Positions 271 through 42,199 of a DNA stretch of 64,000 nucleotides are shown in pieces. The position numbers and the translations under genes are program-made. This stretch comes from an uncultured Deferribacteres bacterium (GTDB lineage Bacteria; Zhuqueibacterota; JdFR-76; BMS3Abin05), in the NCBI GenBank assembly GCA_964568545.1, contig CAZMRE010000001.1, forward strand, positions 134 to 64,133, read 5' to 3'. Every line of letters starts with the position of its first letter. The first letter of the stretch is position 1. The notes below the pieces were generated by a model, which was not told the origin of the DNA, searched no databases, and was given only the letters and a program-made list of their open reading frames with translations.

Positions 271-1272
271 TTACGGAATTTCTAGAACAGCCGCTCCGTT
301 TATCTTGCTTTCCTTAACCAATTGAAGGGCCTTGTTGGCGTCTTTCAACGGAAAAACAGAAATTTCCGTGTGAATGGGGATTTCAGCCGCAATTTTCAAC
401 AATTCTTCCGCATCCTGACGAGTAGCATTGGCCACACTGCGAACCGTTCGTTCATAATAAAGAAGATTGTTGTAATCTATTTCGGGGATTGGCGTCATGT
501 AGATGCCTGCCAGAGCCAACGTACCACCCTTGTCCAGAACGCGAAGCGCTTCTGGAACAAGAGTGCCGGCAGGAGCGAAAATAATAGAGCTATCCATTTT
601 GGCAGGCGGTGTATCCTCAGCTCGTCCGGCCCATTTGGCACCCAATTGCAACGCCAGTTTCTGATGCTCCTCACTGCGCGTGAAGACGTACACATCGCAC
701 CCCCAATGAACCGCAATTTGAATGATTACGTGGGCAGTGGCCCCAAATCCGTACATGCCGAAATTTTGACCCGGTTTAAGCTCGCTTAATTTGAGCGCCC
801 GATATCCGACAACCCCCGCGCACAGCAGAGGAGCCGCCTGAAAATCCGGAAATCCCTCCGGCAAAAAATACGCAAAATCCTGATGAATAATGTGGTACTG
901 CGCGTAGCCTCCATCCACGTGATACCCTGTAAATTTTGCCTGATTACAGAGATTTTCCCGACCCGACGTGCAATATTTGCAGGTACCGCAGGTTGAGTAC
1001 AACCATGGCACTCCCACGCGATCCCCAATTTTGAATCGAGTTACGCCCTTGCCCAGCCGATCTACTGTTCCCACAATTTGATGCCCCGGAATGAGCGGCA
1101 ATTTTGGCAGAGGCAGCTCGCCTTCTACCTCGTGCAAATCGGTGTGGCACACCCCGCAGGCCCTAATCCGAATCCGAATTTCGCCGGGACCCGGCGTGGG
1201 ATCCGGCAAATCCACATATTTCAACGGCTCGGCTTCGATAGGAGCTGGCGCAGAAAACTGCATCGCTTTCAT
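271..1272 (-). CDS. Zinc-dependent alcohol dehydrogenase (medium-chain dehydrogenase/reductase family)
   Basis: 333 aa. It has the catalytic-Zn motif GVCHTDLH, the structural-Zn cysteine cluster CGTCKYCTSGRENLC, and the Rossmann motif GMYGFGATAH. GGAGGA lies 5 nt upstream of the ATG. Confidence 0.85.
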   Translation of the reverse strand: MKAMQFSAPAPIEAEPLKYVDLPDPTPGPGEIRIRIRACGVCHTDLHEVEGELPLPKLPLIPGHQIVGTVDRLGKGVTRFKIGDRVGVPWLYSTCGTCKYCTSGRENLCNQAKFTGYHVDGGYAQYHIIHQDFAYFLPEGFPDFQAAPLLCAGVVGYRALKLSELKPGQNFGMYGFGATAHVIIQIAVHWGCDVYVFTRSEEHQKLALQLGAKWAGRAEDTPPAKMDSSIIFAPAGTLVPEALRVLDKGGTLALAGIYMTPIPEIDYNNLLYYERTVRSVANATRQDAEELLKIAAEIPIHTEISVFPLKDANKALQLVKESKINGAAVLEIP

Positions 1273-11315: not shown

Positions 11316-11400
<85 letters not shown>

Positions 11401-11476: not shown

Positions 11477-11505
11477 AATATAAGAAGTTTTGGAAGTAAT
11501 GTCAA
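11477..11505 (-). promoter_or_regulatory. Sigma-70-type promoter upstream of tRNA-Leu/tig
   Basis: The minus strand reads TTGACA - 17 nt - TATATT, with the -35 at 11500-11505 and the -10 at 11477-11482. Confidence 0.6.
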
Positions 11506-11577: not shown

Positions 11578-11964
11578 TCACGTGGATTGCTGTATCCATT
11601 CCTGAACGACCTCTTGCATGGCCTGAAATTGCCCCTTTATTTTTTTTCGGGCACATTTCGGATTGGATAAAATACAAAGGGTTGCTTTACAAAAATAAAC
11701 CCGCTCCGAGCAACCCTGCCGCCGCTGATAGACAGGCGTTGGCACCATTCGACTCGTGATGTCCTTTCGGCTAAATTCTTTTCCCTTGATTCGCAAACCG
11801 ATTTCTACGGTTTTATCCCAAATAAATTTCTGAAGGGCTACCACATCCTGATTGGTGTACGAATCAACGAGATCGTCAAGGGGAATTCCTTTGAGCAAAC
11901 GGTAGACAGCTTCTATTTTTTGCGCGGGTGAGAGTTCTTTTCGAGCAACTTCGGTATAGGCCAT
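11578..11964 (-). CDS. Hypothetical small protein, last gene of the REC-PATAN-GTPase module
   Basis: The 128-aa ORF starts 14 nt after the upstream gene. The first 70 or so residues look protein-like (SPAQKIEAVYRLLKGIPLDDLVDSY). The Cys- and Lys/Arg-rich tail overlaps a GGGTTGC...GCAACCC hairpin and may be run-on reading. Confidence 0.4.
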   Translation of the reverse strand: MAYTEVARKELSPAQKIEAVYRLLKGIPLDDLVDSYTNQDVVALQKFIWDKTVEIGLRIKGKEFSRKDITSRMVPTPVYQRRQGCSERVYFCKATLCILSNPKCARKKIKGQFQAMQEVVQEWIQQST

Positions 11965-11978
11965 TTTTTCCTCAATTC

Positions 11979-12467
11979 TTACACAGACATCTGTTCCAGG
12001 TTAATATTGACCAGATCCACAACCAACTGGCGGATCGAGTCCAAATGATTCAATTGATACAATGTGAATCTGCTGGTTTTATCCAGTGGTAATCCTCCGC
12101 GATAGGCACGAATGGCAATTTGTGACGTTGAATTTTCGTCAACATTTGAGGCGATTATAATTGGGATTTCGAAATTCTCCTGAAAATATTCCGTAATTTC
12201 TTCAGCGGTTTGAACCGTTTCCGGGCGTTCCCAATCAAACAAAACAATGATGCCAAGAGCCTTAGTTGCCAGAAGTTCCCATGCGTAACTCTTGGCAAAC
12301 CGGCTCCAATGAATGCCGTAAAATTGCAAGAGCATTTCATCATCAAGAGAAAGCCACCCCGCTTGAATTCCTTTTTCCTGAAGCTCCACGCGGTCGCAGA
12401 GCTCTTGCAAAAGGGTTTCTTTTTTTACACTTTTGGGTCCAACTATTAAGATTTCTCCAACTCGCAT
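11979..12467 (-). CDS. Small Ras/MglA-like GTPase-fold protein with degenerate nucleotide-binding motifs
   Basis: 162 aa. Its layout parallels the C-terminal domain of the 13733-15322 protein: beta1 plus a P-loop position reading ILIVGPKSVKKET instead of GxxxxGK[ST], then LGIIVLFD, then IIIASNVDE at the NKxD position. Confidence 0.5.
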   Translation of the reverse strand: MRVGEILIVGPKSVKKETLLQELCDRVELQEKGIQAGWLSLDDEMLLQFYGIHWSRFAKSYAWELLATKALGIIVLFDWERPETVQTAEEITEYFQENFEIPIIIASNVDENSTSQIAIRAYRGGLPLDKTSRFTLYQLNHLDSIRQLVVDLVNINLEQMSV

Positions 12468-12533
12468 AAACGGATCCTCTGCCTTAGCCCAAATTTTTTT
12501 CTGCTGTTCAATCGGCTTGACGCAGCGTTTTTT

Positions 12534-13715
12534 CTACAAAAGCTTATGTTTGATAAATTGCAGTTCGCTTCGGCTGAAAAAAAGCCTTCGGGGCCTTGCC
12601 TTTGTCTGAGCTTCCGCCGAAACGTGCTGTCCTTCATCCGCCGGAAGCTCTGCCTCAACGGGGGCAATCTGGGTAAAGAAATTTTGAATCGCCTCAAAGG
12701 TTCGATCGATGAGATTATCTTCCGGGAGCTCCTCTTGATTTTCCCGGGGTTCGGCATGAAATGATTTTTCCTGCATTGGAAGATGAAAAGAAGCGGATTC
12801 CCTCAAAACTCCCAATTGGTACAGCCGGATAATTTCCCGAAGAGCGGCTAATTCATCCAACAGACTTTCATCCAAAATATCCTGAATGGTGTGCTCTGCA
12901 TCCACGTGGGACAAAATTTCCTGGGTGTCTTCATTTATTTCATCCGGGAAAAGATCCCTCACGTGCTCAAAAACGGTGTCGATAGGAGGCAAGCGGGTAA
13001 GAAGCTGTTCTTTTTCATCCAAAAGTTGAATACTCGTTTGAACAATTTCTTGCACGGGATGGAAAATAGCCTGTTCGCGAAGGATCGCTTGAAAAGTTGC
13101 CGAAAATGTTCCCTCCACCCAGAGAACCAATTGGTAGAGAGCCGCTTCTCCTCTCAGAACACCTAGTTCAGCGTCCCAGACCATTCCTTCTTTAATGTAC
13201 AAACTGCCTTCCAAAGCTCCCCTGCTCAATGTAATAATCCCCGATTTTTTACCCAGCTCAAATGTTTGAATAAGGTCAATTGCATTCATTTCCGAAAGCA
13301 GCCCGTTGAAGCCCTGGAATTCAGCCGCATGTGTTTGCTTCAATCGATCTCTTTCCCGTAGCAGCATTCGGATTCGGTAGAGCAATTCTTCCATTTCGAA
13401 GGGCTTTTGAATAAAATCGTCCACACCGCTCTCAATGAGACGGATTCGCTTTTCAACATTTTCTTCATCACTCAAGGCAATAAACAGCATATTTTTTGTT
13501 CGAGGCACCTCGCGAAGCTGTCGGATCCAATGAATAAAATCGCCGTTAGGCAAATGGGCTTCGGCTACAACAATCTGAGGAGAAAAGGATTCCAGCAGAT
13601 CCTGGGCATCTTTGAGTGTGGATGCGAATCTGCTTTCAAAGTCATTGATGCTCTCCAGATCTTGAAAATCGTTTGCTAGTTCTTTCTCTGGCTCAATGAA
13701 AAGAATTTTATTCAC
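12534..13715 (-). CDS. Atypical receiver (REC-like) plus PATAN/DUF4388 domain protein
   Basis: 393 aa with a GTG start. The REC-like N-terminus keeps the K (IQKPF) and the S/T position (FIALSD). It has IEPE in place of the acidic DD pair and VVAEAHLP in place of the phospho-acceptor Asp. The DUF4388 signature is FNGLLSEMNAIDLIQTFELGKKSGIITL...GSLYIKEGMVWDAELG..GEAALYQLVLW. Confidence 0.7.
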   Translation of the reverse strand: MNKILFIEPEKELANDFQDLESINDFESRFASTLKDAQDLLESFSPQIVVAEAHLPNGDFIHWIRQLREVPRTKNMLFIALSDEENVEKRIRLIESGVDDFIQKPFEMEELLYRIRMLLRERDRLKQTHAAEFQGFNGLLSEMNAIDLIQTFELGKKSGIITLSRGALEGSLYIKEGMVWDAELGVLRGEAALYQLVLWVEGTFSATFQAILREQAIFHPVQEIVQTSIQLLDEKEQLLTRLPPIDTVFEHVRDLFPDEINEDTQEILSHVDAEHTIQDILDESLLDELAALREIIRLYQLGVLRESASFHLPMQEKSFHAEPRENQEELPEDNLIDRTFEAIQNFFTQIAPVEAELPADEGQHVSAEAQTKARPRRLFFSRSELQFIKHKLL

Positions 13716-13732
13716 CGACTCTTGCTCCCAAC

Positions 13733-15322
13733 TTAATTCGTTACTCGTTTTTCACCAAGACTGAACGAAATTTTTTCTTCCTCCGGGTAGGGAGAATACA
13801 TATTTAGCAAAATCATTTTTGCGTTTTCTTTGTCCTTCGGATCACAGGGAATAATCTCTTCGTAACTTTCCAGACCCAACCGCTGGGAAATCTCCTCAAT
13901 GCCCAATGCTTTTTGATGCCGAAGATTTGTTACCGCTACGGCATACGGAAGCTGAAAACGTACCCGAAAAGATTTTATCAGATAATTTATGTAATCCAAA
14001 CTTTCTGCCTCGGTTGCATCCACCAGAAAAACGTAGCCTAGCATGTTGGATGCAATGGAATGAATAATGGCTTTGACCTGTTTTTCGATGGGAATTCCAA
14101 TCAAGAGAATCCTTTTTTCATTGAAAAGATTCAATTTTCCAATATCGAGAGGATGTGGAAAAACCCTTTTCATGGAACGGGTTCGGTAACCTTTTCCAAC
14201 TAACGCCCGCACAAATTCACTCTTTCCACTATCAACCGTTCCCAAAATCACCAGGTAGGGTTCATCGAGAGGCATCTTTTTAAATACTCGTTTCTGGAAG
14301 GATTCGAATTCTTCTTCGCTAAAAAGTGGTTCCAGGACTTCTTCTTCAGCGGGAACTTCTTCCGGCTCGGGAATTTTGATTTCCTCCAAAAATCCCTGCT
14401 GGTACATTTTTACGATTCGCCTCAGTGTGGTAAGATCGTCATTGAAACTGTCATCCAGAATTTTAAGAACCGGGCGTTTGCCGTCGAACAATTCCACAAA
14501 TTTAATGACATCCGGCGCTACCGGGCGTTCTTCCAGATGTTTCAGAAAATGTGCTTTTACTGAAAAAATAGCGTATGGCCCGGGCAGTTTACTCAAAAGA
14601 TCGCGACGCTGTCGAAGGCGTTCATATCCCTGTAACAAAAGGCCAAGATTACTAATTGAAATCTCATCTTCCATATCCACTTGCTGTGGCACAAGGGAGG
14701 TGTGTCCCTTTGCCCAGGGAAACATTTGGTAAACGGCTCGTTCGCCCCTGAATCCCCCCAGAATTGCATTCACAACCGCACCGTTGCGAAAAAATATCTG
14801 CCCACTCTTTTTAAATTCATTGGTCACATTCACAATTCCAGACCAGCGCCTAACCCCAAGTCTGGCAATCAACTCTGCCACAATTTTGTCTTTCAGATTC
14901 CCCTGACTTCTCGCCCCCTCATCTGAGTCGCCCGATTGCATGCGCTGAAGCCGATTTAGAATCATTTTTACCCGTGCAACAATTTCTGCCACGTGCAGGG
15001 GCTTCATCATGTAATCCTGCACGCCCAGTTCAAAGGCCTTTACTCTATTCTGAAGACCGTTCTGTGCCGTTAGAAAAATAACCGGGATACCTTCGGTTTT
15101 CTCATTTTCCTTGAGATTTTGTAAAAGCGCCACGCCGTTGAGATCCGGTAAATCGGCATCCGTAATGATCAAATCCGGCTGGTATTTTTCCGCTTTTTCC
15201 AGCGCATCGTAGCCATTCTCCGCTGTACTCACTTGGAAACGATTGCTAACTAGCTCCCGAACGAGAATTTCGATGTTTTGAGCATCGTCATCTACAATTA
15301 GAATTGTTTTTGCTTGTGCCAT
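13733..15322 (-). CDS. Response-regulator receiver plus PATAN/DUF4388 plus C-terminal P-loop GTPase-like domain fusion protein
   Basis: 529 aa. The REC domain is canonical (LIVDDD, IITDADLP, FLTA, MMKP). The DUF4388 signature is GNLKDKIVAELIARLGVRRWSGIVNV...GQIFFRNGAVVNA..GERAVYQMFPW. The C-terminal domain has Walker A ILGTVDSGKS, then GYVFLVD and AVTNLRH. Confidence 0.75.
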   Translation of the reverse strand: MAQAKTILIVDDDAQNIEILVRELVSNRFQVSTAENGYDALEKAEKYQPDLIITDADLPDLNGVALLQNLKENEKTEGIPVIFLTAQNGLQNRVKAFELGVQDYMMKPLHVAEIVARVKMILNRLQRMQSGDSDEGARSQGNLKDKIVAELIARLGVRRWSGIVNVTNEFKKSGQIFFRNGAVVNAILGGFRGERAVYQMFPWAKGHTSLVPQQVDMEDEISISNLGLLLQGYERLRQRRDLLSKLPGPYAIFSVKAHFLKHLEERPVAPDVIKFVELFDGKRPVLKILDDSFNDDLTTLRRIVKMYQQGFLEEIKIPEPEEVPAEEEVLEPLFSEEEFESFQKRVFKKMPLDEPYLVILGTVDSGKSEFVRALVGKGYRTRSMKRVFPHPLDIGKLNLFNEKRILLIGIPIEKQVKAIIHSIASNMLGYVFLVDATEAESLDYINYLIKSFRVRFQLPYAVAVTNLRHQKALGIEEISQRLGLESYEEIIPCDPKDKENAKMILLNMYSPYPEEEKISFSLGEKRVTN

Positions 15323-15380
15323 TTTTCTCCCTTGTTATTCAACCGACTCTCCCCGCTGTTTTTATGCCCTTGAAGCAAGT

Positions 15381-15397
15381 TGCAAAAATAGCGCCAA
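15381..15397 (-). promoter_or_regulatory. Sigma-54 (-24/-12) type promoter upstream of the REC-PATAN-GTPase gene
   Basis: The minus strand reads TTGGCGCTATTTTTGCA, against the consensus YTGGCACGrNNNTTGCW. The GG and GC dinucleotides have the correct spacing. The element ends about 59 nt upstream of the ATG at 15322. Confidence 0.55.
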
Positions 15398-15503
15398 AAA
15401 GCAAGAGTTGTTTTCGGGCATACTTACACTCTATTTTACAGAGTTAAAGCGTTTGAATTTTGCACAGGTCTCACTTTGAAACAATTTGCTAAAAAACACT
15501 CAA

Positions 15504-17096
15504 TTACATATAAAGCTTTTTTAATTTGGAACCCGGATAATAGTGATATAAAATTTCCGAGTACGTGTAGCCCTGTTCAGCCATTATTTCAGCACCCACC
15601 TGACACAACCCCACACCGTGTCCCCAGCCCCCACCCTTTAGATGAATGGCCTTCAATTTTCCGTTCGTGTCTGTTTCTTTATTAACAATGAACAAAGAGC
15701 TGAACAAGTGCGTTTTGGAAAGCACACGCCGGATTTCCAGCTCCTTTCCGACGATTTTTTCACCATTTTTCCCCACAAGCCTGGCGTAGATAAGCCGTCC
15801 CGAATCGCCTCGCTCAAGCGGTTGGATGTCCTGAATGGCTCCCAACCCCCAGCCTGTTTTTTCTTCCACAATTTCCCCCAATTCTTCCGGTGTGAAATGA
15901 ACCTCCCACCGAAAACCCGATTTTTCAGGCAGGTAGCCCACCTGCCAATTAAAGTGCTCGTGGGCCTCTCGCAAATAATCAGGGAGCTGGTAGGCGTCTG
16001 GATTGCAAAAGACCCTGGGCGAGCTTTCAATAAATTCGCGTACAGTTTCCTCTTGCCGCAAATCAGGTAATTGCGCCGGCGCCTCAGGGCCGTCGTAAAA
16101 TTTAGTCAAGTAGGGAATGTCCTGATCATCCCACACGTTTTTGTAAGATTCCCCAATCCCCCCGCAAACTTTGGCATAGCGGGCATCGCACACCTGATTT
16201 CCATATGCCAGCACTTCTCCGCGTGTCAGGGCAGCGGCTTCTCGGGAACGGTCTTCAATGGCCGCCGATCCGTGAAAACACTGGCAGTGATCATCCGCGC
16301 AAAGGTCAAATGGATCGCCAAAATGATGTTTGCCCGTCGTTGCAAACACCGTATTTCGCGCCACAATCGTCTGGCTTTTCAAAAATTCCATCGAGCAATT
16401 GGGAACCATTTCAGACGAATTGACCGACGCAAGGTAAGTTTCTAGATCAAGGATATTGACGGCTGTAATTTTTCCGTAGCGATCGATATGAAAGGCCAGA
16501 TCGCCTTCGTATTCCTGAGTTTCCCGGTGATCCCAATGAAAACCGATTCCCACATGAATATTATCCAGCAAAAAGCGGCACGACGGATCATCAGGCACAA
16601 AACGAATGCCGTTTTCTATTGAAACATCTTCTAAAAAGAGTTCTCCTCTGGCAGCGCGCGTAATAATCGGAATAACCATCATCCCACCAAAATCTGGCAG
16701 GGTACGCCGGTAATCGTCTGCGGCTTTTTCCGAATCAAATGGCTCAGAAAGCACCCAGAATTCCCGATTGTCGTACACGCGGCCATTCCCCAGTGGAATT
16801 TCCTGTCCCACCCGTAATTTTGTTGTCTGAACCCCATGCGATGCCCAGTATTGGATGCGTTCATCCGCCTCACCTTCTTCCACCCGAATATTCATTCTGA
16901 CGGCGTATTGGATTTCACCGGGATCCAATGTTTTGTGCGTGATCCTATAAAAATGCTCTGGCTTTCCCTCAAAGATTCTATTGTTTGCCAGATCGTATCC
17001 CGTGAACGAACGGGTGGCTTTGAATGTCATCTCGGCTTCGTGCTGAAGAACCCCGATACGAATCAGCAAAGCACCCGTTTCTTGATGAACCTCCAT
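15504..17096 (-). CDS. SpoIID/LytB-domain protein (lytic transglycosylase / amidase-enhancer family)
   Basis: 530 aa. SpoIID-family blocks are present: LKSQTIVARNTVFAT, CADDHCQCF, YAKVCGG, GGGWGHGVGLCQVGA. The ATG overlaps the upstream CPBP stop codon (TAATG). Confidence 0.75.
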   Translation of the reverse strand: MEVHQETGALLIRIGVLQHEAEMTFKATRSFTGYDLANNRIFEGKPEHFYRITHKTLDPGEIQYAVRMNIRVEEGEADERIQYWASHGVQTTKLRVGQEIPLGNGRVYDNREFWVLSEPFDSEKAADDYRRTLPDFGGMMVIPIITRAARGELFLEDVSIENGIRFVPDDPSCRFLLDNIHVGIGFHWDHRETQEYEGDLAFHIDRYGKITAVNILDLETYLASVNSSEMVPNCSMEFLKSQTIVARNTVFATTGKHHFGDPFDLCADDHCQCFHGSAAIEDRSREAAALTRGEVLAYGNQVCDARYAKVCGGIGESYKNVWDDQDIPYLTKFYDGPEAPAQLPDLRQEETVREFIESSPRVFCNPDAYQLPDYLREAHEHFNWQVGYLPEKSGFRWEVHFTPEELGEIVEEKTGWGLGAIQDIQPLERGDSGRLIYARLVGKNGEKIVGKELEIRRVLSKTHLFSSLFIVNKETDTNGKLKAIHLKGGGWGHGVGLCQVGAEIMAEQGYTYSEILYHYYPGSKLKKLYM

Positions 17097-17947
17097 TACT
17101 CCTCTACGCTCCTCTGCTCAATTGAATTCTTCAGGGATTCCATCATCCACTGGAATCCCGCCGCAAAAAGAATAATTCCCCCTGCCAGCCAGTACCACCG
17201 GACAGTTTCGCCCTTCAAATACCAACCAAGCCTTTCATCCGGAATTTTCAAAAAAACTACCGCAATCGCGTTGTTCAGCACGTGAATAAAAATCCCAGGG
17301 ATGACTGAATCACTCTTAAAAGCCACGTAACCCAATAAAATTCCCAGCAAAAGTATTTGAAAAAGCCACCAAGGGTTTAGATGCACCACCGCAAACAGAA
17401 TAGACGAAACGGCAATTGCCCAGGCCGGAGAAAAGTATGTTTCCCACACCTTCTGAAAAAATCCCCTGAAAAGTATTTCCTCGAAAATCCCTGCAAAAAT
17501 TGTTGCTGACAAAAATGCCAGCCAAAAATAGAGGGGATTGTTGAACCGAAAAGATTCCTTGATCAACTCTTCCATTTCGGGCGGCATAACCAACCAAGTT
17601 TGAAGAATTCGATCAAGTGCATCCGAAATGGGAATCAGACCAATTGTTACCAACACGCTGGCCGCTACAACAGGCCATCCTACCGGCCGCAGCCGAAATG
17701 CGCGTTTGAATGAAATTCTCTTCCACCCCAGGAAAATGATCTCCGGTACCAGCAGAAGCAGCTCTGCCGACAGCACAAGTGCTTTCAAATCCGGGTTGGC
17801 TGATTTCGTCCGAACCCACAGCGATAGGCCAAAACCAACCCCAAAAATAAGAAGCATCGAACCAACTACAAGGAGCAATGCCCGACCGGGGGTTAGAAGA
17901 GATTTCTCAACAAACATTTCTTCCGGCCGGGATTCCGGATCAGTCAA
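17096..17947 (-). CDS. CPBP-family (CAAX-type) intramembrane metalloprotease
   Basis: 283 aa and polytopic. It has motif 1 FEEILFRGF, motif 2 FAVVHL and motif 3 IFIHVLNN. Confidence 0.8.
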   Translation of the reverse strand: MTDPESRPEEMFVEKSLLTPGRALLLVVGSMLLIFGVGFGLSLWVRTKSANPDLKALVLSAELLLLVPEIIFLGWKRISFKRAFRLRPVGWPVVAASVLVTIGLIPISDALDRILQTWLVMPPEMEELIKESFRFNNPLYFWLAFLSATIFAGIFEEILFRGFFQKVWETYFSPAWAIAVSSILFAVVHLNPWWLFQILLLGILLGYVAFKSDSVIPGIFIHVLNNAIAVVFLKIPDERLGWYLKGETVRWYWLAGGIILFAAGFQWMMESLKNSIEQRSVEE

Positions 17948-23976: not shown

Positions 23977-26334
23977 TTATTTTTGAATACTTTGACCTTC
24001 AGTTACAGGGCCTTTCTTTTTGGGCAAATTCTCTTTTTGTTTTTCAGATTTGACCACCGCTTTTGAGGATTTTTTCCCGGAAAGCATTTTTTCCTGTCCC
24101 GGATATTCAATTCGTGCGTGGTGAACACCAATCAAAATCTTTTCAAAGGCTTCCCCGATTTTTCGAAGTTCTCTCACGGTTAGAGGACATTCATCCAATT
24201 GCCGCTCTTCGAACTTCTCTTCAATAACCGAATGAATAGCATTTTTAATTTTACTTACATTCACTTCCCGAATGGAACGGGAAAGCGCTTCAACCGTATC
24301 GGCCAACATGAGAATTCCCGTTTCACGCGTTTGCGGTTTCACTCCCTGGTACCGAAAATCAGCCTCATTGACGGGCACCCCTTTGCCCTGAGCAAGTGCC
24401 TTTTCATAGAAATATTTCATAAGAGAGGTACCGTGATGCTGAAGAATAAAATCCTTGATCGCCGATGGCAAATGGTACTGATTGGCAAATTCAATCCCCT
24501 TTTTGACGTGATTTTGAAGAATGAGGCTGCTTATTCTTGGTGCCAGATTTTCATGAGGATTTTTCCCGAAGCGCTGGTTTTCAATAAAGTATTCCGGCAT
24601 GTACATTTTGCCGATGTCGTGGTAATAAGCCCCCACCTTTGCCAGTAGGGTATTGGCGCGAATCTCTTCCGCCGCCGCTTCCGCCAAATTACTAACCACA
24701 ATACTGTGGTTGTAAGTTCCCGGCGCACGCACGGCTAACATTTTTAGGAGTGGGTGATTTAAATCACTTAATTCAATTAATTTGTATTCGGAGCAAACAT
24801 CAAAAATGGAATCGAACATAAGCAAAAGGCCATAGGTTAAAACGGCTGATAGCACCCCGTTAATTATTCCGCCAACCCAATCCTTTGCCAGCTCGGAAAA
24901 TGCAATCTGTTGAGAAAGCCCCAAAAATACAAGAGAAAGAAAATAGGCTCCCGACAAAAAGAACACAGAATTTGTAAGCCGCTTGCGATTTCGGAAAACC
25001 CCCACACTAACCACAGCGATTGCAGAAACAAAAATGGAAATCACCAGCAAACTGTAGTCATTGCCAAACAGCCCGGCTACAATCATACTTAATGAAAATC
25101 CTGCGAGAAGGCTGGTTCGGTTATCAAAATAATAAGTGATCACCATTGGAACCACTGCCACAGGTACAAGATAGCGGGTGAGTCCGTAATTTTCAACGAA
25201 GAACCCCATAATAATAACCAGAAGCATCGACCCGAAAATCATGATCAAGGAACTGTCGTTCTTAAAGATTTTAGGGCGATACACAAAAATAAAGCTAACC
25301 AGCGGGAAAAGGGCTAATAAAATGAAGAAAAAGATTCCCATATAAAACGTGAACAACTGCCAGAGCGGGCTATTCGCATTTTTGTCTGCTTTTGCTTTTT
25401 CAAGAGAACGCAGGGCATCAATTTGTTCCTGAGTGATGCGCTGGTGCTTTTGAATGATGGTCTCTCCCTTTAAAATCTGCCCCTTCACCAGTGGAACCCC
25501 GCTAATGGCCTCTTGAATCAGATGTTTTGTTTTCTTCTCGTTGTAAATAATATCAGGTTTAATCAAGGAAACTAACAAGGCATACGCGGCATGGATGGAA
25601 TCGGCTTCGGTGCCATACCTGGCGCGCAGTCTTTCAAGCAATCGTTCCCGTGCATCTTTGAAATCATAAATATAATTCAGATTTTTTTCAAAATGCTGAT
25701 CGGCATCCTCAATGTAGATTCGAGTGTTTATTTTGCGGATTTGTTGCTTTGGCCGATCAATAATTCCAATGGCATAGATATCCTGCAAAATTTGCCGAAC
25801 CTCATTTTCAAATTTGCTCTCAGCCCTGGCATTGGATTTTGTGGCCAATTGCGAAAAAAATTTGGCTTCGCTGTCAGCCAGAACAATTTTCTCTCTGTGA
25901 CAAAAGCTCAAGATTTCGATAATGCGAATGGTATCCGAAACGCCAGATGTGGCAAGCAGGTGAATCTCGTCAAAGAAGCTGTTCAGACTTTCCAATTCCT
26001 TGTTAGCGATTGTATGATCCACATAAAAAATGGGGAGAACCCGCCGGCTCGCTTCCTGTCGATCTCGTCTGAGTTCCTGATCACTCTTGTAGATGTAAAA
26101 AGTAAAGGGGGCAATGATGTCGCGATCCGCAATGGTTCCGGGACGCAAATTGCGGTATTGATTGAAATTCAGGGAAGGGAAAAAGAGCGTTGCAATAACA
26201 GTAAAAAAGAGGAGAATAATAATCTGAGTTTTATAGCGCAACAGCCACGAGCCATCCTCGTCAGATGATTTTTCAGAAGATACAGCGGATTTGTTCGGAG
26301 ATGCCGCCGATTTTTTTCTGTTAAACAGGTGCAT
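23977..26334 (-). CDS. pgpH: Membrane HD-domain phosphohydrolase of the 7TM-HD (PgpH-like) family
   Basis: It has an extracellular N-terminal domain, 7 TM helices, and an HD domain (HSIVVSNLAEAAA, YYHDIGK, HHG). The start is set at the ATG at 26334, directly after the phoH stop. The longer ORF start would overlap phoH by 92 nt. Confidence 0.85.
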   Translation of the reverse strand: MHLFNRKKSAASPNKSAVSSEKSSDEDGSWLLRYKTQIIILLFFTVIATLFFPSLNFNQYRNLRPGTIADRDIIAPFTFYIYKSDQELRRDRQEASRRVLPIFYVDHTIANKELESLNSFFDEIHLLATSGVSDTIRIIEILSFCHREKIVLADSEAKFFSQLATKSNARAESKFENEVRQILQDIYAIGIIDRPKQQIRKINTRIYIEDADQHFEKNLNYIYDFKDARERLLERLRARYGTEADSIHAAYALLVSLIKPDIIYNEKKTKHLIQEAISGVPLVKGQILKGETIIQKHQRITQEQIDALRSLEKAKADKNANSPLWQLFTFYMGIFFFILLALFPLVSFIFVYRPKIFKNDSSLIMIFGSMLLVIIMGFFVENYGLTRYLVPVAVVPMVITYYFDNRTSLLAGFSLSMIVAGLFGNDYSLLVISIFVSAIAVVSVGVFRNRKRLTNSVFFLSGAYFLSLVFLGLSQQIAFSELAKDWVGGIINGVLSAVLTYGLLLMFDSIFDVCSEYKLIELSDLNHPLLKMLAVRAPGTYNHSIVVSNLAEAAAEEIRANTLLAKVGAYYHDIGKMYMPEYFIENQRFGKNPHENLAPRISSLILQNHVKKGIEFANQYHLPSAIKDFILQHHGTSLMKYFYEKALAQGKGVPVNEADFRYQGVKPQTRETGILMLADTVEALSRSIREVNVSKIKNAIHSVIEEKFEERQLDECPLTVRELRKIGEAFEKILIGVHHARIEYPGQEKMLSGKKSSKAVVKSEKQKENLPKKKGPVTEGQSIQK

Positions 26335-26335
26335 G

Positions 26336-27370
26336 TTATTTAATTGAACTTTCAGAGACTTCGGACTGCGTGGATTCTTGTACAGAAACAGCCATTTGTA
26401 CCGTTTCTGAAGCAGCATTTGTTTCAATACTCTGGTCGTAGGCGTTGTAAGCTTTAATAATTTCCCTCACAAGGCGGTGACGAACCACATCGCGATCCGT
26501 CAGATAAATAAAGTCGATGCCTTCAATTCCCGTCAAAATTTCTTGAATGAGAATAAGCCCAGACTTCTGTTTTGCCGGCAGGTCTACTTGTGTAATGTCA
26601 CCCGTAATAATCGCTTTGGAATTCACTCCCAATCTCGTTAAAAACATTTTCATCTGATTTGGGGTGGTGTTTTGTGCTTCATCCAAAATAACAAAGGCAT
26701 TATTCAGGGTTCGACCCCGCATGTATGCCAAAGGGACAATTTCAATTTCTCCACGCTCCATCATTTGGCGCAAACGCTCTCCCGGAAGCATGTCGTAAAG
26801 GGCATCGTAAAGGGGTCTCAAATAGGGGTCGACTTTCTCTCGGAAATCACCCGGAAGAAAACCAAGGCTTTCGCCCGCCTCAACAGCCGGACGCGCTAAA
26901 ACAATACGGTCCACCTCGTGGGCATTAAGATGCGCAACCGCAATGGCCACAGCCAGGTAGGTTTTTCCGGTACCCGCCGGTCCAATAGCAAAAACAATAT
27001 CGTTCTTCAGTGTCGATTGGTAATAAACAAATTGTCCCCTGGTTTTTGGACGAATAAAATCAGATTTAGTACTCAGAATGACCGATCCCAGGTCTTCCTC
27101 CTTTAGCGATACACCCATCGATTTCACAAGGGAAATAAGTGTTTCCAAATCCTTTTCGGAGATTTTTCCGTTGCGATTTATGAGCAAAATCAATTCGGAG
27201 AAAAGCTTTTCTAATTGAGTTACTTCGGAAGGCTCACCGTCAAGAACAACATCCGTGCCTCGAACGGTAATTTTGGAAGAAAATCGCTCTTGAATGAGTC
27301 TGAGATTTACGTCCTGAAAACCCAGAAGTTGTAATTGATCAACTCCTTTTATGGAAAATTTTTTTTGCAT
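26336..27370 (-). CDS. phoH: PhoH-family ATPase
   Basis: 344 aa. It has Walker A GPAGTGKTYLAVA, Walker B FVILDEAQN and ITGDITQVDL. Confidence 0.9.
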   Translation of the reverse strand: MQKKFSIKGVDQLQLLGFQDVNLRLIQERFSSKITVRGTDVVLDGEPSEVTQLEKLFSELILLINRNGKISEKDLETLISLVKSMGVSLKEEDLGSVILSTKSDFIRPKTRGQFVYYQSTLKNDIVFAIGPAGTGKTYLAVAIAVAHLNAHEVDRIVLARPAVEAGESLGFLPGDFREKVDPYLRPLYDALYDMLPGERLRQMMERGEIEIVPLAYMRGRTLNNAFVILDEAQNTTPNQMKMFLTRLGVNSKAIITGDITQVDLPAKQKSGLILIQEILTGIEGIDFIYLTDRDVVRHRLVREIIKAYNAYDQSIETNAASETVQMAVSVQESTQSEVSESSIK

Positions 27371-34467: not shown

Positions 34468-37400
34468 CTAGGGCTTAAGCACACGATTCAAAAGAAAGGC
34501 CTGTTTTTCAATTTCCTTTTCGAGATTGATCTCTTCCCGCTTTACCGATTCACTCACTTTCTGAATGGTCGCTTTTCGCAAGAGTTGAATTTGAAAGATC
34601 GCTCGCATGCCTTTCCGAGTACTGTCTGTGTCTGTCACGTGAATAGCTACGACATTCTTTCCTTGCCGGATGAACTCATTGACATTCACAGGGAAAACTT
34701 GCTTCCACCCTAATGTATCGGCTTTTTCCTGAAAAACCTTTACGCCGTTTATAAAAATTTCCATATTGTCATCAGCTTGAATTTTAAGTTTGGAAGACAC
34801 CGGAATATCACTGATATCAAACGCTTTTTTGAAATACAATTCCGCCGGATAAGCTTCGTGGGCGGCAAGATGGAAGGCTCTTGGAGCAGCCTTTTGCGAG
34901 GAATCCACCGCAACCGTGTCAGCAAACACTGTATCCATTTTCATTGGAATATTCATGCTGTAGGCCATCTTCCCTGGGAACAGAGCTTTTCCCGCAGAAT
35001 CCCACGCCATTTTCTGTGCGTGCATCCAGGAGGAATCTGGAGGGGTGTTCTGGATCCAGTTGGAATCAACCTTCGTGCTGACCAGCCATGAGGTGTCAGC
35101 AGGCACGTACACGGAATCGGTAGACACCGCAAATTCCTTGGCGTACGTGACAGGATCTAATTCAATTAGGAGACTGGACAAATTGCTAACCGCCAGGCTT
35201 TGCAAATTATGGGATTTTTTATAATCGTACGCATCCGCAGCAATTTCAAGAGCGGCGTCGTGCAAAGAATTAAAATTATCGGAATAGGTGTAGATGGCGT
35301 CTTCGTACTCAGGCATTGGCTCCTTTTGATTCAGCGCAGAAAAATAATCCTTCAATGCCCGCGCAGAATCCGCTTCAATTTTGTAAGTGTCGGCGATTTG
35401 GTAGGTGTTTTCCAGATAATCATTCATTCCCTGTTCGGCATATTTATCCGGGAAATTGTGTTTGAGAAAATTATCCAACTCCCACTGGTAAAATCGTGTC
35501 ATGATTTGCGTGTATTTCTTTCCCAAATCAATTACATTTAACAAATCTCCAGCCAAATTGAGGGCGCCCTCTTTTTCACTGTCAGAGCCTTTTGTCATTA
35601 TTTTATAATAGCGGTGTTTCATTTTCCGGTACGTGTCGATTGTTCCCATGGCCAGCTCGTAATATTTTGCGGGAAGAATTTTAAATACCTGCAGCAGCTT
35701 TTTCCGCGAACGCGCAACCCATCTATTTTCCAGTTCAAGCGAATCGGCTTCATTGATATTACGAAGATGAGCCTGAACAATTTTATCCACCGTTGGCTTA
35801 ACGGCCTTTAGATACACCTGATTTTTGTACTCCAATATAGCCACGGGATCGAGGCCATCAGGAATGGGTGCCGACAAAATCTGTTCGATGGACGCAAAAT
35901 TGAGATCCGCAATGCGGTACAGCATTTCGGATGTCTTTTCACCCGAACGTGTGACCCATCGTTTCATCACCCGCAATGTGCTGTCCTTTTCTGCCACTCG
36001 AATAGAATGCCTGTGGATAGAATCGCCAGACGTTGTGTCCGAAAGGGCCGTTGAATCTGAAGCGGTCGGTGCGGCAGCATTCTCAAGCTTTCTCAACAGA
36101 ATAACAGCCGAGCGGTAGGAAGCGTGAGCTTTTTCATACAATTGCGCAGACATTTGATGGATTTTTGTCCGGTACACAATCTGTCGTGTTTTGTCCATTT
36201 GAGGGATTTCCTGAGAGTTCCAAGTATTGGCAAATTCCTCGTAAACCTTGCCAATGTCATACGTGGCTTCGTACAACCGAATGGTACCATACGCCGCCAC
36301 CTGTTCATACTGAGAGACCAGTTGTTTCAACAGCTCTTTCTTCTGCTTTTTCTGGGCATCCATATTTGCCAGCGTGAATCGGATTTTTTTGTAATCATTG
36401 TACATTAATTCCGATTTCAGGAAAAGAGCCTCTGCCGCGTAGAAATCATTTGTTTTAAGATTTTTGGATTTCAATTCTGTGTTCCGCTGCAACGCCCGAT
36501 TGAATTCCACAATGGCCTGGTCATGTTCCCCCTTATTCATAAAATATTCGCCGCGTTTGTAAAATGTTTCCACGCCTCGGGGCGAATCCGGGTACTTCAT
36601 CCCGAATTCATCCCAAATTCTGTTTGCCTGATCCAGATCATCTAACTTCAAATAGTACTCAGCCATGTTGTAAAACATATTTTCCGCATCGGAAGATTTT
36701 GGGTACGTTTCCACGTACTGCTTGTTAATCCGAATCGCATTTCGCCAGTCCTTTGCCTTGACCGAGAAAAAACTGGCATTGTACAGTGCATCCTGCGCTT
36801 TTGCCGAATCCGGCGTAACCTTCCAGAGTTTCTCATAAGTATTGGCTGCGTATTTGTACTCTTTCAATTCACCATAATCCAGTGCCAGGTTGTTCATGGC
36901 ATCCAGGTAGTATTTGGATGAAGGAAAATGATCAATCAAATATTGGTAGGCTTCCACCGCCTGATTGTATTCCGAAACCTTATCGTACTCCACCGCCGAT
37001 TGGTAGAGCGACAAATCAGCAAATTTGGCGTTCGGAACCTCTTTAACAACCCTCCGGTATTCCTTTGCCGCTGCCAGATGATTCCCGCTATCCGCCAATG
37101 CCTGGGCATGCATAAAAATCGATTCAGACATGCGTCTGACCGCTTTCTTTTTTACAGCTTCAGGAACATTCTTGCTCAATTGAATTTTTTTCGCCATCAA
37201 TTCGGCGCTCACAAAATCCTGCTTTCCAAAATAGCTTTCCATTGCCGTGAATTGAGCCTGAGTAAGCTCCGGACTATCCGGAAAACGCTGAATAAGCGTG
37301 TTAAAATACGTCAGAGCTTCCTCAAAGTGCTTTTTATTGTAGAACAAAATTCCGGCATTAGCCAATGCTACCGAAGCATCTTTGTCCTGCGGAAACAGTT

Positions 37401-39144
37401 TAATGAAATTATCGTAGGCTTCAATGAGGCGTTTCTCATCAGCATTCAGCGTATCAGGCTTCACCGGCTTAAGACCGACCGCATTCTTTTGACGAGCAGC
37501 CATTTTCTGAAAATCGCTAATTTTACTGGTGTCGCTGCCAGCCGTTTTCAATGGTTGAGCATGGTGTTTTTTCAAAATTTCATTGGCAACTGCAATGGCA
37601 TTTTGAGCGGCATCCTTTCGATACTTGTCCTTTGTATAATCAAAGGCAATCTTTTCATATTCCCTAAAAGCCTCATCATCCCGATTTAATTTGGTGTCCA
37701 AAACGAGGGCCATGTTCCAGTGAATCGTGTAAGCCAGCGAATCATCAGGAAAGTATTTCAGATAAATGCGGCTGTTTTTTACCGCCTGTTGATAATAGTC
37801 CAGGGAAGAATCCTTCTCCGCATCCGTGAGAAGTCGATTAATATTTTCTTGCATAGTTTTCTTCACCAGTTCGGTTGCTTCCCGAATGGCTTTTCTTCGG
37901 AGGAGAGGATTGGGAATTTTTTTCTGCATCGCCTTAGACCATTTGCTTCCGGGATGAAATTTCAGAAACATTTCCCGCTGGGCTTGATACACGCCGTTAG
38001 TATCTTCCAAGCGCTTAAATGACTTAACGATTTCATTCTGGATTTGCGGCGCCTCCGGTGCATCCGGATAATAATGCAGGATGGCGTTATACGTCGCGAT
38101 GGCTCTCAGAAACTTTTCTTCATCAACTTCGTAAACGTCTCCCAATTTTTTTAAAATATGAACACCGTAATCGGGATAGTTTAAATCAGCTAAATATTTC
38201 AGCGCCTCGTCAAGGCCGCCGTAATCGTGGAAACAAATGCCAATGTAATCCAGCGATTCATCTTCAAGAGAGGGGTTGGAATAGGTGCCGTTGTAGTCAA
38301 CGGGTTTTGTCTTCTCAATATCTTGCACGGCTGCCGTAAAGGATGCAATTGCTGAGGGGAAATCTCCCTTTAAATAGTTGGCCCAGCCAATCTTGTACAA
38401 CGCCTCATCGTAGCGCGGCGTGTCTTTGTATCTTAGAACCAATTTATAGTATTTAATGGCTTCGTCGTAGTTTTTTACAGAGGGACTGAAATAATATTCC
38501 CCGATCTGCATAAGGGCTTCGGGAGCATATTTGCTTTTGGGATATTTTGAAGCAATTTCGCGATAATAACCTACAGCATCCACAAACTTCCCTTGTTTGC
38601 CCAAGATGTAGGCCAAATTATAGAGGGCATCGTCGTACAAACTGCTGTTCGGAAAATTATCTACAATAAGGCGATATTTTTCCAGTGCCTTGGAATAATC
38701 AATTTTAGGTTCCTCAGGGGGATTGGGACGCAAGCCCTTTTCATAGTCAGAATAAGCCTTATCATACGCATCCATTTTCTTGAGAAAGGTTTCATCCGCC
38801 TGCTGAAAATAAAACTCGCCCAAACGCAAAAGAATTTTGTCGACAAAATGACTGTTAGGATTTTCGGTTAGCAGTTTTTCCACATTCTGGATATTCTTCT
38901 CACGAAGCAATTTTTTTTCGCGCTGCAAGCGATTAATTTCGTTTTTGTAGTATTCACGAAACTTGATCAGATCCTCAGCCGAAAATGTTTTAACCAGGGA
39001 ATCCAACAGCGTTTGATGAGATGATTTCTCCCCTTTTTCAATTAGCGTTTCCTGAGCAAAACTATTTTTGCCCAAAAATATAATTAGGGCCATACTCAAA
39101 AACACGATGGCCTTTCTCCATCCCTGGAATCTACGATTTTCCAT
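34468..39144 (-). CDS. Giant secreted TPR-repeat protein (about 1558 aa) with a C-terminal beta-sandwich-like domain
   Basis: The start is set at MENRRFQGWRKAIVFLSMALIIFLGKNSFA|QE (signal peptide). The longer ORF start would overlap the upstream gene by 149 nt. There are dozens of A/Y/L-patterned 34-residue repeats (e.g. YDDALYNLAYILGKQGKFVDAVGYYREI). The last 150 or so residues (KIQADDNMEIFINGVKVF...NVVAIHVTD) resemble a galactose-binding-like fold. Confidence 0.75.
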   Translation of the reverse strand: MENRRFQGWRKAIVFLSMALIIFLGKNSFAQETLIEKGEKSSHQTLLDSLVKTFSAEDLIKFREYYKNEINRLQREKKLLREKNIQNVEKLLTENPNSHFVDKILLRLGEFYFQQADETFLKKMDAYDKAYSDYEKGLRPNPPEEPKIDYSKALEKYRLIVDNFPNSSLYDDALYNLAYILGKQGKFVDAVGYYREIASKYPKSKYAPEALMQIGEYYFSPSVKNYDEAIKYYKLVLRYKDTPRYDEALYKIGWANYLKGDFPSAIASFTAAVQDIEKTKPVDYNGTYSNPSLEDESLDYIGICFHDYGGLDEALKYLADLNYPDYGVHILKKLGDVYEVDEEKFLRAIATYNAILHYYPDAPEAPQIQNEIVKSFKRLEDTNGVYQAQREMFLKFHPGSKWSKAMQKKIPNPLLRRKAIREATELVKKTMQENINRLLTDAEKDSSLDYYQQAVKNSRIYLKYFPDDSLAYTIHWNMALVLDTKLNRDDEAFREYEKIAFDYTKDKYRKDAAQNAIAVANEILKKHHAQPLKTAGSDTSKISDFQKMAARQKNAVGLKPVKPDTLNADEKRLIEAYDNFIKLFPQDKDASVALANAGILFYNKKHFEEALTYFNTLIQRFPDSPELTQAQFTAMESYFGKQDFVSAELMAKKIQLSKNVPEAVKKKAVRRMSESIFMHAQALADSGNHLAAAKEYRRVVKEVPNAKFADLSLYQSAVEYDKVSEYNQAVEAYQYLIDHFPSSKYYLDAMNNLALDYGELKEYKYAANTYEKLWKVTPDSAKAQDALYNASFFSVKAKDWRNAIRINKQYVETYPKSSDAENMFYNMAEYYLKLDDLDQANRIWDEFGMKYPDSPRGVETFYKRGEYFMNKGEHDQAIVEFNRALQRNTELKSKNLKTNDFYAAEALFLKSELMYNDYKKIRFTLANMDAQKKQKKELLKQLVSQYEQVAAYGTIRLYEATYDIGKVYEEFANTWNSQEIPQMDKTRQIVYRTKIHQMSAQLYEKAHASYRSAVILLRKLENAAAPTASDSTALSDTTSGDSIHRHSIRVAEKDSTLRVMKRWVTRSGEKTSEMLYRIADLNFASIEQILSAPIPDGLDPVAILEYKNQVYLKAVKPTVDKIVQAHLRNINEADSLELENRWVARSRKKLLQVFKILPAKYYELAMGTIDTYRKMKHRYYKIMTKGSDSEKEGALNLAGDLLNVIDLGKKYTQIMTRFYQWELDNFLKHNFPDKYAEQGMNDYLENTYQIADTYKIEADSARALKDYFSALNQKEPMPEYEDAIYTYSDNFNSLHDAALEIAADAYDYKKSHNLQSLAVSNLSSLLIELDPVTYAKEFAVSTDSVYVPADTSWLVSTKVDSNWIQNTPPDSSWMHAQKMAWDSAGKALFPGKMAYSMNIPMKMDTVFADTVAVDSSQKAAPRAFHLAAHEAYPAELYFKKAFDISDIPVSSKLKIQADDNMEIFINGVKVFQEKADTLGWKQVFPVNVNEFIRQGKNVVAIHVTDTDSTRKGMRAIFQIQLLRKATIQKVSESVKREEINLEKEIEKQAFLLNRVLKP

Positions 39145-42100: not shown

Positions 42101-42199
42101 AAAAAGGAATGCAGCTCTATTTGCAAGATGTTGAACACGAGATTTCCAAATATCAGGCGATGTCGTACCATGCTTCTTTGAAATCATTGAATGCACCAT
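39182..42199 (-). CDS. Large coiled-coil plus TPR-repeat protein (1005 aa) with an N-terminal membrane anchor or signal
   Basis: It has an N-terminal hydrophobic segment AAFLFVILLLGGTSL and long heptad regions. The central TPR repeats include YHLAEIYMAQGKYEKAKRTFAYVIRQFP and YLTGYVYFKKENYDQAISTL. The C-terminus is Lys-rich. Confidence 0.7.
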   Translation of the reverse strand: MVHSMISKKHGTTSPDIWKSRVQHLANRAAFLFVILLLGGTSLSMAPEKTRLEKQFEAHVWQMIDEKTSDFYYDMVYKEQFLTRLMDNLVEELKERKKEKQPVSGIFDAIVTHDAAAGSDSLIQAYSQEIRRALGLMDQLKQLEREADQKNDVSIRARAAAIKDELKRAIEGKTRVPFSKKDQLSNTLISNYRSEIKQILTIYGELDHYQALARAENNQAALSEIKQEKSHLEQLLSSHMSRSDNTLEAQYYREMENIISVLYQLDHFRSQISPDDEDILFKIDALKEDVLANVDRKLLRVLGYTNFALLSNESKFDEFLEEWKATQIFNYKIKLTRVRLLRQRLIHDSNLAQLNRMFRRDLADAIVSYNRGEYPLAELEFRELLREYPFHDMEDIHYHLAEIYMAQGKYEKAKRTFAYVIRQFPHSKYVSDSYFKILLITEALHQDDQYFDAYKKLEARFQKIPKDEVYEKAHYLTGYVYFKKENYDQAISTLRTIPEKSDYAMSAQFLLASAYAGEQRYRSAAKIFRKLVAEAQKQSSDSRANLIKNNSLLKLGMIYYENNEPKLALKYFNRVSAGNNAYQDALIGKAWAEFREGQIKYTVEDLDRLFWNFMSSNYVYEAKTLSAHCYNMMGKPIRAARDLRYVENAKRALAILTGKNKERKALAGRLQELDKIQEDALKRGDRLRFQEVVYLKQKVKRIMENTYPSGKPGLYMMDEFELERQRLENLVSDLETYQKIVRKLGYEDLTKNIGKTKNRLLAILGSYTPGKWSSETDFLASYPFLQRQSMVRYKRQVLSEMLAEIQSQLKQVQNDQKDVEKLVAEARKQGDVRSIVRLDFNGENLENISDRLEEYVVYLNGELDDSPEENVQYYADFSGFGVSDIDFVRLQNIDLKIKNYYDYISLINNALNVQQLALKDHIYTMNDSLRQVQRRLKQKQMEDHRKAMDIYFNQKYFVSKNRENVVRQEAKYKTQDQGVQELLEKKYPEKQNRLQEKDKKEKHKK

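Follow-up and report, generated by a model that had tools for sequence, protein, structure and literature searches.

What is formed when a receiver, a PATAN domain and a small-GTPase-like domain are joined in a single protein, and the genes beside it seem to encode the same parts again, separately and with key sites lost? The question is raised by a four-gene operon, g1 to g4, in a stretch of 64,000 nucleotides of contig CAZMRE010000001.1 (hereafter, the window). The host is an uncultured Calditrichota bacterium; the nearest database proteins to g1 come from Calditrichota metagenome-assembled genomes (MAGs), and the protein P0001 matches the g1 query region at 100% identity. The original prediction described the operon as a sigma-54-controlled circuit in which an active receiver and an active GTPase each have an inactive counterpart. 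Our explanation, to which we give as a whole a probability of roughly one half, is that the module acts by protein-protein interaction, and neither by DNA binding nor as a true GTP switch.

The fusion protein g1 and the pair g2 and g3

The four genes were found as first described, all on the minus strand and separated in the list of open reading frames (ORFs) by gaps of 17, 66 and 14 nt (Table 1). In g1, the Pfam family Response_reg (PF00072) was matched over residues 7-119 with an E-value of 4.9e-27 and 94.7 bits (cutoff 30.2), and is followed by DUF4388/PATAN (PF14332) over residues 140-239 with 35.4 bits (cutoff 25). The receiver signature is complete (D11-D12-D55-T85-K107, D55 being the acceptor), and the DD-D-T/S-K signature is present in 20 of the 26 members of the clade to which the window belongs, the 529-aa clade. 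The C-terminal 185 residues of g1 belong to no Pfam or NCBIfam family, and the JGI annotation of this region is "SRP receptor subunit beta". When the region was modelled with AlphaFold2 from a 23-sequence alignment (pLDDT 85, pTM 0.81), all of the best 50 Foldseek matches in the PDB were small GTPases (probability 1.0, TM 0.53-0.64), including the FeoB G-domain, Arf, Arl, Sar1 and MglA. A profile search against the PDB returned weak matches to Rab, Rheb, Arl and SR-beta (best E 2e-4), single-sequence searches returned only marginal ones to dynamin and IFT22, and the PATAN region retrieved nothing there apart from spurious repeat-protein matches. The C-terminal domain of g1 is predicted by the model to have a small-GTPase fold, and the Pfam matches and this fold together bear out the proposed REC-PATAN-GTPase-like fusion; g3 is assigned to the same fold by homology.

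The architecture of the first part of g1 is repeated in g2, where Response_reg was matched with an E-value of 1.2e-10 and 42.0 bits (cutoff 30.2), and DUF4388 with 53.5 bits (cutoff 25); by hhalign, residues 1-309 of g2 align with residues 4-317 of g1 at 100% probability (E 2e-50). The g2 receiver has Glu52 at the phospho-acceptor site and a proline at the position equivalent to D12, the second acidic pocket residue. Among its orthologues the acceptor position is occupied by E, A or D, and several also lack the conserved Lys. Judged by these residues the g2 receiver is a pseudo-receiver, and its earlier description as non-phosphorylatable agrees with both substitutions.

Similarity between g3 and the g1 C-terminus was not detected by BLASTP, and their homology is visible only by profile-profile comparison, in which the g3 family profile matched the g1 C-terminal family profile over 150 columns with an hhalign probability of 98.5% (E 2.6e-15). 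No Pfam or NCBIfam family was found for g3, which has weak matches to Ras and Rab profiles. At the P-loop position it has GPKSVKKE, a stretch that is degenerate in every g3 orthologue aligned, as expected for the stand-alone GTPase-like fold with a ruined P-loop that had been proposed; g3 is a candidate pseudoGTPase and paralogue of the g1 C-terminal domain.

A further link between the two units is a conserved helix at the end of g2, of the motif class [ED]-h-x-x-h-[KRQ]-x-[KR]-h-h. The same class is present in g1 (EEFESFQKRVF) and in relatives of about 490 aa, where it is followed, 18-19 residues on, by the first strand of the G-like domain (hereafter, the pre-G helix). The strict pattern occurs in 11 of 120 proteins, every time at the pre-G position, with a background of 0.01 per 45 residues. 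Because g2 ends in the pre-G helix motif of g1 and g3 is a G-like domain, the two together look like a split paralogue of g1 from which the key sites have been lost.

The G-like domain and its fate in three clades

We then asked whether the G-like domain of g1 has the motifs of a working GTPase. An exhaustive profile search gave a family of 816 clusters at 50% identity (E <= 0.001), a count that takes in stand-alone MglA-like GTPases at its tail, and 268 clusters at E <= 1e-10. The stand-alone relatives at the tail carry FGTPGQ, some of them NKxD as well, and match the Pfam families ATP_bind_1, Ras and Arf. In MglA groups 2-5 the G3 signature is GTPGQ, and the lack of an Asp at G3 is described as a peculiarity of MglA (PMC4316618). 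As g1 shares the G3 Gly-for-Asp signature and its stand-alone relatives carry FGTPGQ, the G-like domain most likely descends, by these motifs, from an MglA-like GTPase. Another multidomain use of the same G-domain lineage was observed in P0207 (557 aa), in which a defence-like TIR_2 domain (E 1.4e-25), a HEAT repeat, an MglA-like/ATP_bind_1 G domain with FGCPGE at G3 and a C-terminal REC are combined.

From this presumed ancestor, g1 has kept the Walker A (G1) motif GTVDSGKS as its sole canonical G motif. At G3 it reads LIGIPIEK, that is, GIPIE in place of the GTPGQ of the stand-alone relatives, and at G4 VTNLRH and not [NT]KxD; in g3 the corresponding stretches are FYGIHW and ASNVDE, and neither protein has DxxG(Q) or PGQ at G3. 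Judging from these motifs, g1 has lost the Gly that senses the gamma-phosphate, the catalytic Gln and the motif for guanine specificity. Across the family, GxxxxGK[ST] is present in 30 of the 152 best domains and absent from 122, and the residues that are invariant family-wide (G85, Y100, Y103 and L104 in alignment A3, LxGY...YxxYLI) lie in none of the G-motifs.

These observations bear directly on the model that accompanied the original prediction, in which the C-terminal domain of g1 is a working MglA-type GTP/GDP switch, g3 an inactive decoy or effector, and g2 an inactive partner of the g1 receiver. The predicted fold and the canonical Walker A motif are what such a switch would have; in an alignment of 17 orthologues, G361, G366 and K367 do not vary within the 529-aa clade, and some relatives of the ~490-aa clade reach the Pfam Arf threshold. 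However, in several orthologues S368 is replaced by N or G, giving GKN or GKG, the change at G3 removes both the sensing Gly and the catalytic Gln, G4 departs from NKxD, and the P-loop is missing from most of the best family domains and from a whole clade in which the gene triad is still kept. There is also no MglB/Roadblock GTPase-activating protein in the operon, which consists of g1-g4 only. We therefore regard a working switch as unlikely, and GTP cycling as probably not central to the core function, as far as motifs can tell. The idea of an active/inactive pair holds insofar as sites are kept in g1 and lost in g2 and g3, but not for the label "active" given to the g1 GTPase, given the loss of G3 and G4. 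A sister clade keeps the triad although its P-loop is destroyed and its receiver has Glu for Asp. A better description of the pair is a fused unit in which the key sites are retained and a split unit from which they have been lost.

That sister clade is one of three in which g1-like, g2-like and g3-like genes stand in the same order. In the 529-aa clade, represented by the window, the g1 receiver is canonical, the P-loop is present, g4 follows, and a sigma-54 element is often found. In the long clade (590-990 aa), Glu occupies the acceptor position (58/60) and the P-loop is destroyed; g4 is lacking, and the module is linked to a sigma-54 promoter, to a gene for an enhancer-binding protein (EBP) and to a protein of about 390 aa. 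In the ~490-aa clade (e.g., L093), the receiver is degenerate, the P-loop is mostly kept and g4 is again lacking. In all three, g2-like receivers and g3-like P-loops are degenerate. By its sequence, the window carries the version with most sites intact, and the triad architecture survives, to judge from the aligned sites, the loss of either input site, be it the receiver Asp or the P-loop. Because the triad is kept despite both losses, it is the interaction surfaces, not catalysis, that would form its conserved core.

The synteny anticipated for related genomes was also found, as the order g1-g2-g3(-g4) is retained in every sufficiently long related locus examined. Near-full-length relatives of g1 occur in at least about 11 genomes among the matches listed (two peptide patterns, 185,579 species genomes), and all of these genomes are MAGs, whose labels vary between Caldithrix, KSB1, "Deferribacteres", "Cytophagia" and "Bacteroidetes". 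The g1 proteins of the long clade share about 40-45% identity with that of the window, and three in open frames of 919-992 codons (Table 1) have an insert of about 300-450 residues between the PATAN and G-like domains. The ~390-aa protein of this clade is 55-74% identical across loci (tblastn), belongs to no Pfam family, with a weak DUF7809 match in L008 (E 4e-4), and occurs neither in the window nor in 529-clade loci.

Table 1. Coordinates of the features discussed, in the window unless a locus handle (L) is given; lengths of proteins in residues
Feature	Position	Strand	Description
g1, 529 aa	13733-15322	-	ATG start; REC - PATAN/DUF4388 - post-PATAN - acidic linker - helix - small-GTPase-like
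g1, remaining parts	residues to ~317; 335-347; ~345-529		post-PATAN region conserved to ~317, then acidic linker; helix SEEEFESFQKRVF at 335-347; predicted small-GTPase-like domain at ~345-529
Walker A/G1 motif of g1	14219-14242	-	GTVDSGKS in translation, C-terminal domain
g2, 393 aa	12534-13715	-	GTG start; pseudo-receiver - PATAN - post-PATAN - variable acidic linker - C-terminal helix
Conserved C-terminal helix of g2	12537-12575	-	SRSELQFIKHKLL; end of g2, same motif class as the g1 pre-G helix
g3, 162 aa	11979-12467	-	stand-alone paralogue of the g1 C-terminal GTPase-like domain, without P-loop; candidate pseudoGTPase
g4, 128 aa	11578-11964	-	predicted all-alpha, four invariant Cys
Sigma-54-type -24/-12 element	15381-15396	-	TGGCGC-TATTT-TTGCA; ~60 nt before the g1 ATG
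Conserved upstream block	15469-15485	-	ATTGTTTCAAAGTGAGA; ~75-90 nt upstream of the -24 element; candidate EBP site
SpoIID-domain gene	15504-17096		upstream of g1
Rce1-like protease gene	17096-17947		upstream of the SpoIID gene
Long-clade ~390-aa protein	L007:6213-7439, L008:6227-7384 (also L013-L017, L020)		between the EBP gene and g1
Long-clade g1 homologues	L013:3769-6525, L015:5815-8577, L018:1041-4016		open frames of 919-992 codons
Long-clade palindromes	L007:6075-6115 and equivalent spacers of L008, L014, L016, L017, L020		candidate sites for the neighbouring NtrC-type activator

Promoter and upstream control

In the 181-nt spacer between the SpoIID gene and g1 lies the -24/-12 element, with GG at -24, GC at -12, the 10-nt spacing between them and one mismatch to TGGCAC-N5-TTGCW. 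Counting such motifs does not distinguish it from chance. With up to one mismatch there is a single match in the 64 kb (2.58 +/- 1.57 expected, thus no enrichment), and at least one match appeared in 93 of 100 shuffles. Together with the lack of an EBP gene in the window, where GAFTGA-type ORFs were sought and tblastn matched REC only, and with the absence of the element in two 529-clade relatives (L001, 58%, in which the SpoIID stop lies only 26 nt before g1, and L004, 44%), this would fit a fortuitous match, with transcription of the genes starting at a sigma-70-type promoter or coming from SpoIID as read-through. It is the conservation of the element that speaks differently. We aligned the SpoIID-to-g1 spacers of relatives whose g1 proteins are 88, 82, 72 and 62% identical to that of the window, and TGGC-NN-TATTTTTGCA stands out as an invariant island in otherwise diverged spacers, down to the 62% relative; 14 of the 16 positions of the element are invariant. 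The distance to the ATG varies, as the 62% relative has an insertion of about 95 nt between element and start codon and retains the element itself. Moreover, a sister clade has another conserved -24/-12 element, placed independently of this one and with an EBP gene next to it, and no good sigma-70-like site was found in the 181-nt spacer. A fortuitous match is in our view most improbable. The sigma-54-type reading, which had been offered on the strength of the motif, is accepted because of this phylogenetic footprint and not because of motif statistics, and on that footing a sigma-54-type promoter is well supported. In L012, another of the more distant 529-clade relatives, CGGCGCTTATTTTGCA lies at about -207.

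Upstream of the element, the window shares the conserved block ATTGTTTCAAAGTGAGA with the 88% and 82% relatives, and a related GTCTCA-N3-TGATAA is present in the 62% relative. Lying at activator distance, this block is inferred to be a candidate activator (EBP) binding site. The long clade offers a parallel. In six of its loci, an element of its own, TGGTAT-N5-TTGC, is conserved about 1.8 kb upstream of g1 and stands directly before the additional ~390-aa gene. Directly upstream of this promoter region is a gene for an NtrC-type REC-AAA+-HTH_8 activator, 77-85% identical across loci, and about 100-130 nt upstream of the element there are two adjacent, nearly invariant palindrome-like elements, GTCTCA-N3-TGATAC and TGTTTC-N3-GAAACA, which look like candidate sites for this neighbouring activator. 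The half-sites TGTTTCA and TGAGAC/GTCTCA are common to these palindromes and to the upstream block of the window. An EBP gene was found in none of the 529-clade loci examined.

The last gene of the operon, g4, had been described as a small unknown protein, and so it is: a real gene with 21 homologous clusters, all unnamed, and without a Pfam or NCBIfam family. Its alignments show four invariant cysteines (C85-x6-C92-x4-C97-x6-C104), and its AlphaFold2 model (pLDDT 87) is all-helical and has no structural match in the PDB or BFVD, zinc-finger and helix-turn-helix (HTH) proteins included. A T4_MRH match was weak (E 0.047) and was discarded. Roadblock domains have an alpha/beta fold. The possibility that g4 stands in for MglB/Roadblock was ruled out, as its model is all-alpha and matches no fold. 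The exact g4 of the window was missing from the word-based homology matches (best, 92% identity), where the g1 query region and g3 were matched at 100% on a contig of 66.5 kb; g4 may be uncalled or differently called in the source record.

The four cysteines could form a zinc site, and g4 could thereby be part of a transcription regulator in which either it or the post-PATAN region of g1 and g2 binds DNA while the receiver controls expression. DNA binding by PatA-type regulators has been predicted before, and a Synechocystis preprint that cites the prediction deems it unlikely (bioRxiv 10.1101/2021.06.11.447907). No HTH or other DNA-binding family was matched by any of the four proteins in Pfam or NCBIfam at E up to 1, the g4 fold resembles no DNA-binding protein, and g4 is limited to the 529-aa clade, being absent from long-clade and ~490-aa-clade loci. 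In addition, the sole functional study found shows PATAN working via protein contacts. A DNA-binding module is, on this evidence, improbable.

Surroundings, proposed mode of action and meaning

Upstream of g1, the SpoIID-domain and Rce1-like protease genes are followed by a SpoU methylase gene and hisS; downstream of g4 lie tRNA-Leu (11316-11400), tig, clpP, clpX and lon. As all 529-clade loci examined have the Rce1-like and SpoIID genes ahead of g1, g1-g4 might be the distal part of a longer envelope-remodelling operon, with a role in peptidoglycan remodelling or division and not in motility. The close SpoIID-g1 spacing without a -24/-12 element in L001 would suit this idea, as would the interaction of PatA with the divisome that is reported for Anabaena (PMC7380572). 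Against it, the module has other neighbours elsewhere: the EBP, the ~390-aa protein and cystathionine-related enzymes in the long clade, and in the ~490-aa clade a SpoU methylase gene that directly abuts it, with no SpoIID. Within one phylum, common synteny may reflect relatedness alone, and SpoIID and g1 of the window have a conserved promoter between them. We hold an envelope-remodelling operon to be quite unlikely.

Several observations were made on the remainder of the window. No additional copies of the four families were found in its 64 kb, nor any riboswitch or small RNA, the tRNA being the sole RNA match. After g4 there is no convincing terminator; a terminator-like site at 11699-11711 falls within g4 and was put down to chance. 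Just past the g4 stop, about 77 nt 5' of tRNA-Leu, a sigma-70-type promoter (TTGACA-17-TATATT, 11477-11505, minus strand) has 11 of 12 matches. A reading of the module as a defence system was dropped, PADLOC having given weak matches only, to SduA, PD-T4-6 and PDC-M60B, on the REC residues of g1 and g2. Nearly all gene-like ORFs of at least 120 aa in the window (1-64000) are on the minus strand, a strong strand bias, and they include two giant TPR proteins (34468-39144 and 39182-42199), a 7TMR-HD receptor (23977-26418) and the alpha and beta subunits of an F-type ATPase. A 2055-aa ORF (56927-63094, minus strand) matches SprA_N (E 1.6e-42), a family of type IX secretion/gliding-associated translocons; it lies about 42 kb from the module, with no obvious link to it.

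Returning to protein-protein interaction as the mode of action, we propose the following. Phosphorylation of g1 D55 by an unlinked kinase would be the input, and would alter how the PATAN and G-like domains engage their partners. The tail helix of g2 would dock on g3, so that a g1-like unit is reconstituted, and the main role of the two G-like domains would be to offer surfaces for docking or dimerisation, through which the fused half is paired with the split one. Nucleotide binding by the g1 P-loop would be at most a lineage-specific modulator. The PATAN domains would provide the output, probably towards machinery at the pole or in the envelope, type IV pili for example; this target, or any other, is a guess made by analogy with MglA systems and with the PatA-type regulators of cyanobacteria, PATAN binding PilB1 and PilC in Synechocystis (bioRxiv 10.1101/2021.06.11.447907). 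Sigma-54 would control expression, together with an enhancer-binding protein whose gene lies elsewhere. In Caldithrix abyssi there are flagellar genes as well as a type IV pilus cluster (PMC5317091).

Some of the evidence weighs against this proposal. The operon, whose neighbours are housekeeping genes, has no linked gene for a type IV pilus, for MglB or for a kinase; the window encodes no EBP, and the -24/-12 element is absent upstream of g1 in some members of the window's own clade, L001 and L004. Moreover, both the window's clade and the ~490-aa clade preserve the P-loop well, and nucleotide binding may matter more than we have assumed.

How far does this module depart from known systems? 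PATAN genes are neighbours of mglA and mglB (Wuichet & Sogaard-Andersen 2014, PMC4316618, and Makarova et al. 2006 as cited in later papers), and the module resembles these systems, with PATAN beside a Ras-superfamily, MglA-like G domain, Gly instead of Asp at G3, and REC as a frequent PATAN partner. That link is, however, a gene-neighbourhood observation, and neither a fusion nor a fused-plus-split triad, whereas here one polypeptide joins the G-like domain to REC-PATAN and a split copy exists besides; the G-like domain has lost the G3 Gly/Gln and the G4 NKxD, and lacks an MglB/Roadblock partner in the operon. With MglA itself, of Myxococcus xanthus or Thermus thermophilus, the g1 domain shares the predicted small-GTPase fold (Foldseek matches 6izw, 6h5b and 3t1q, TM 0.54-0.61) and the P-loop; MglA, unlike g1, is a single-domain protein with PGQ at G3 and NKxD at G4 that cycles GTP with its activating protein MglB, and g3 has not even a P-loop. 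The cyanobacterial PatA-type regulators (PixG, PixE, PatA) likewise combine REC and PATAN, their PATAN is the output and works through partner proteins (PilB1, PilC), and some members of that family are phosphorylation-independent, a further likeness. Yet their order is PATAN-REC by the definition in bioRxiv 10.1101/2021.06.11.447907, as opposed to REC-PATAN here, they have no G-like domain, and they sit in chemotaxis-like or photoreceptor operons and not in a sigma-54 operon.

A parallel for the use of a degraded G domain may be found in eukaryotic pseudoGTPases, such as the pseudoGTPase domains of p190RhoGAP, as well as AAGAB's N-terminal domain, where a G-domain fold with degraded motifs serves protein-protein interaction and not switching; homology to these is limited to the superfamily, and g1 and g3 are bacterial. 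As to control, the operon resembles NtrC-type sigma-54 regulons in the canonical spacing of -24 GG and -12 GC, in the upstream block at activator distance, and in the REC-AAA+-HTH_8 gene adjacent to the module in the sister clade, and differs from those with a linked activator in that none is encoded in the window. Altogether, the module can be seen as a variant of the known PATAN-MglA-like association. It stands outside the MglA family proper, because its G3 and G4 motifs are not those of that family, and outside the PatA-type regulators, because the domain order is reversed. The literature on PATAN with GTPase, DUF4388 and bacterial pseudoGTPases yielded no description of this fusion or triad, and in this respect the original statement, that no characterised system with such a layout was known, stands.

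A bolder and tentative version of the interaction reading, which we consider doubtful, is that the triad is an undescribed signalling device in which an intact fused unit is paired with a site-less split unit via contacts between a pseudoGTPase and a G domain, and in which the clades have swapped inputs. The window's clade would then use phosphorylation and nucleotide, the ~490-aa clade nucleotide only, and the long clade, with both sites lost, a purely transcriptional control by sigma-54 and EBP. If this were true, it would be the first prokaryotic module for polarity or positioning in FCB-group bacteria to be based on a pseudoGTPase.

The locus encodes a coherent, conserved and unannotated signalling module; Pfam contains no model of g3, of g4 or of the C-terminal domain of g1. 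PATAN and MglA-like GTPases were known to co-occur; here they are covalently fused, beside what appears to be their own split, site-less paralogue. The three clades form a series of domain inactivations in which the acceptor Asp and the P-loop appear dispensable, and the LxGY...YxxYLI surface and the pre-G helix do not. The family may thus offer a testable handle on the coupling of PATAN to G domains and on bacterial pseudoGTPases.

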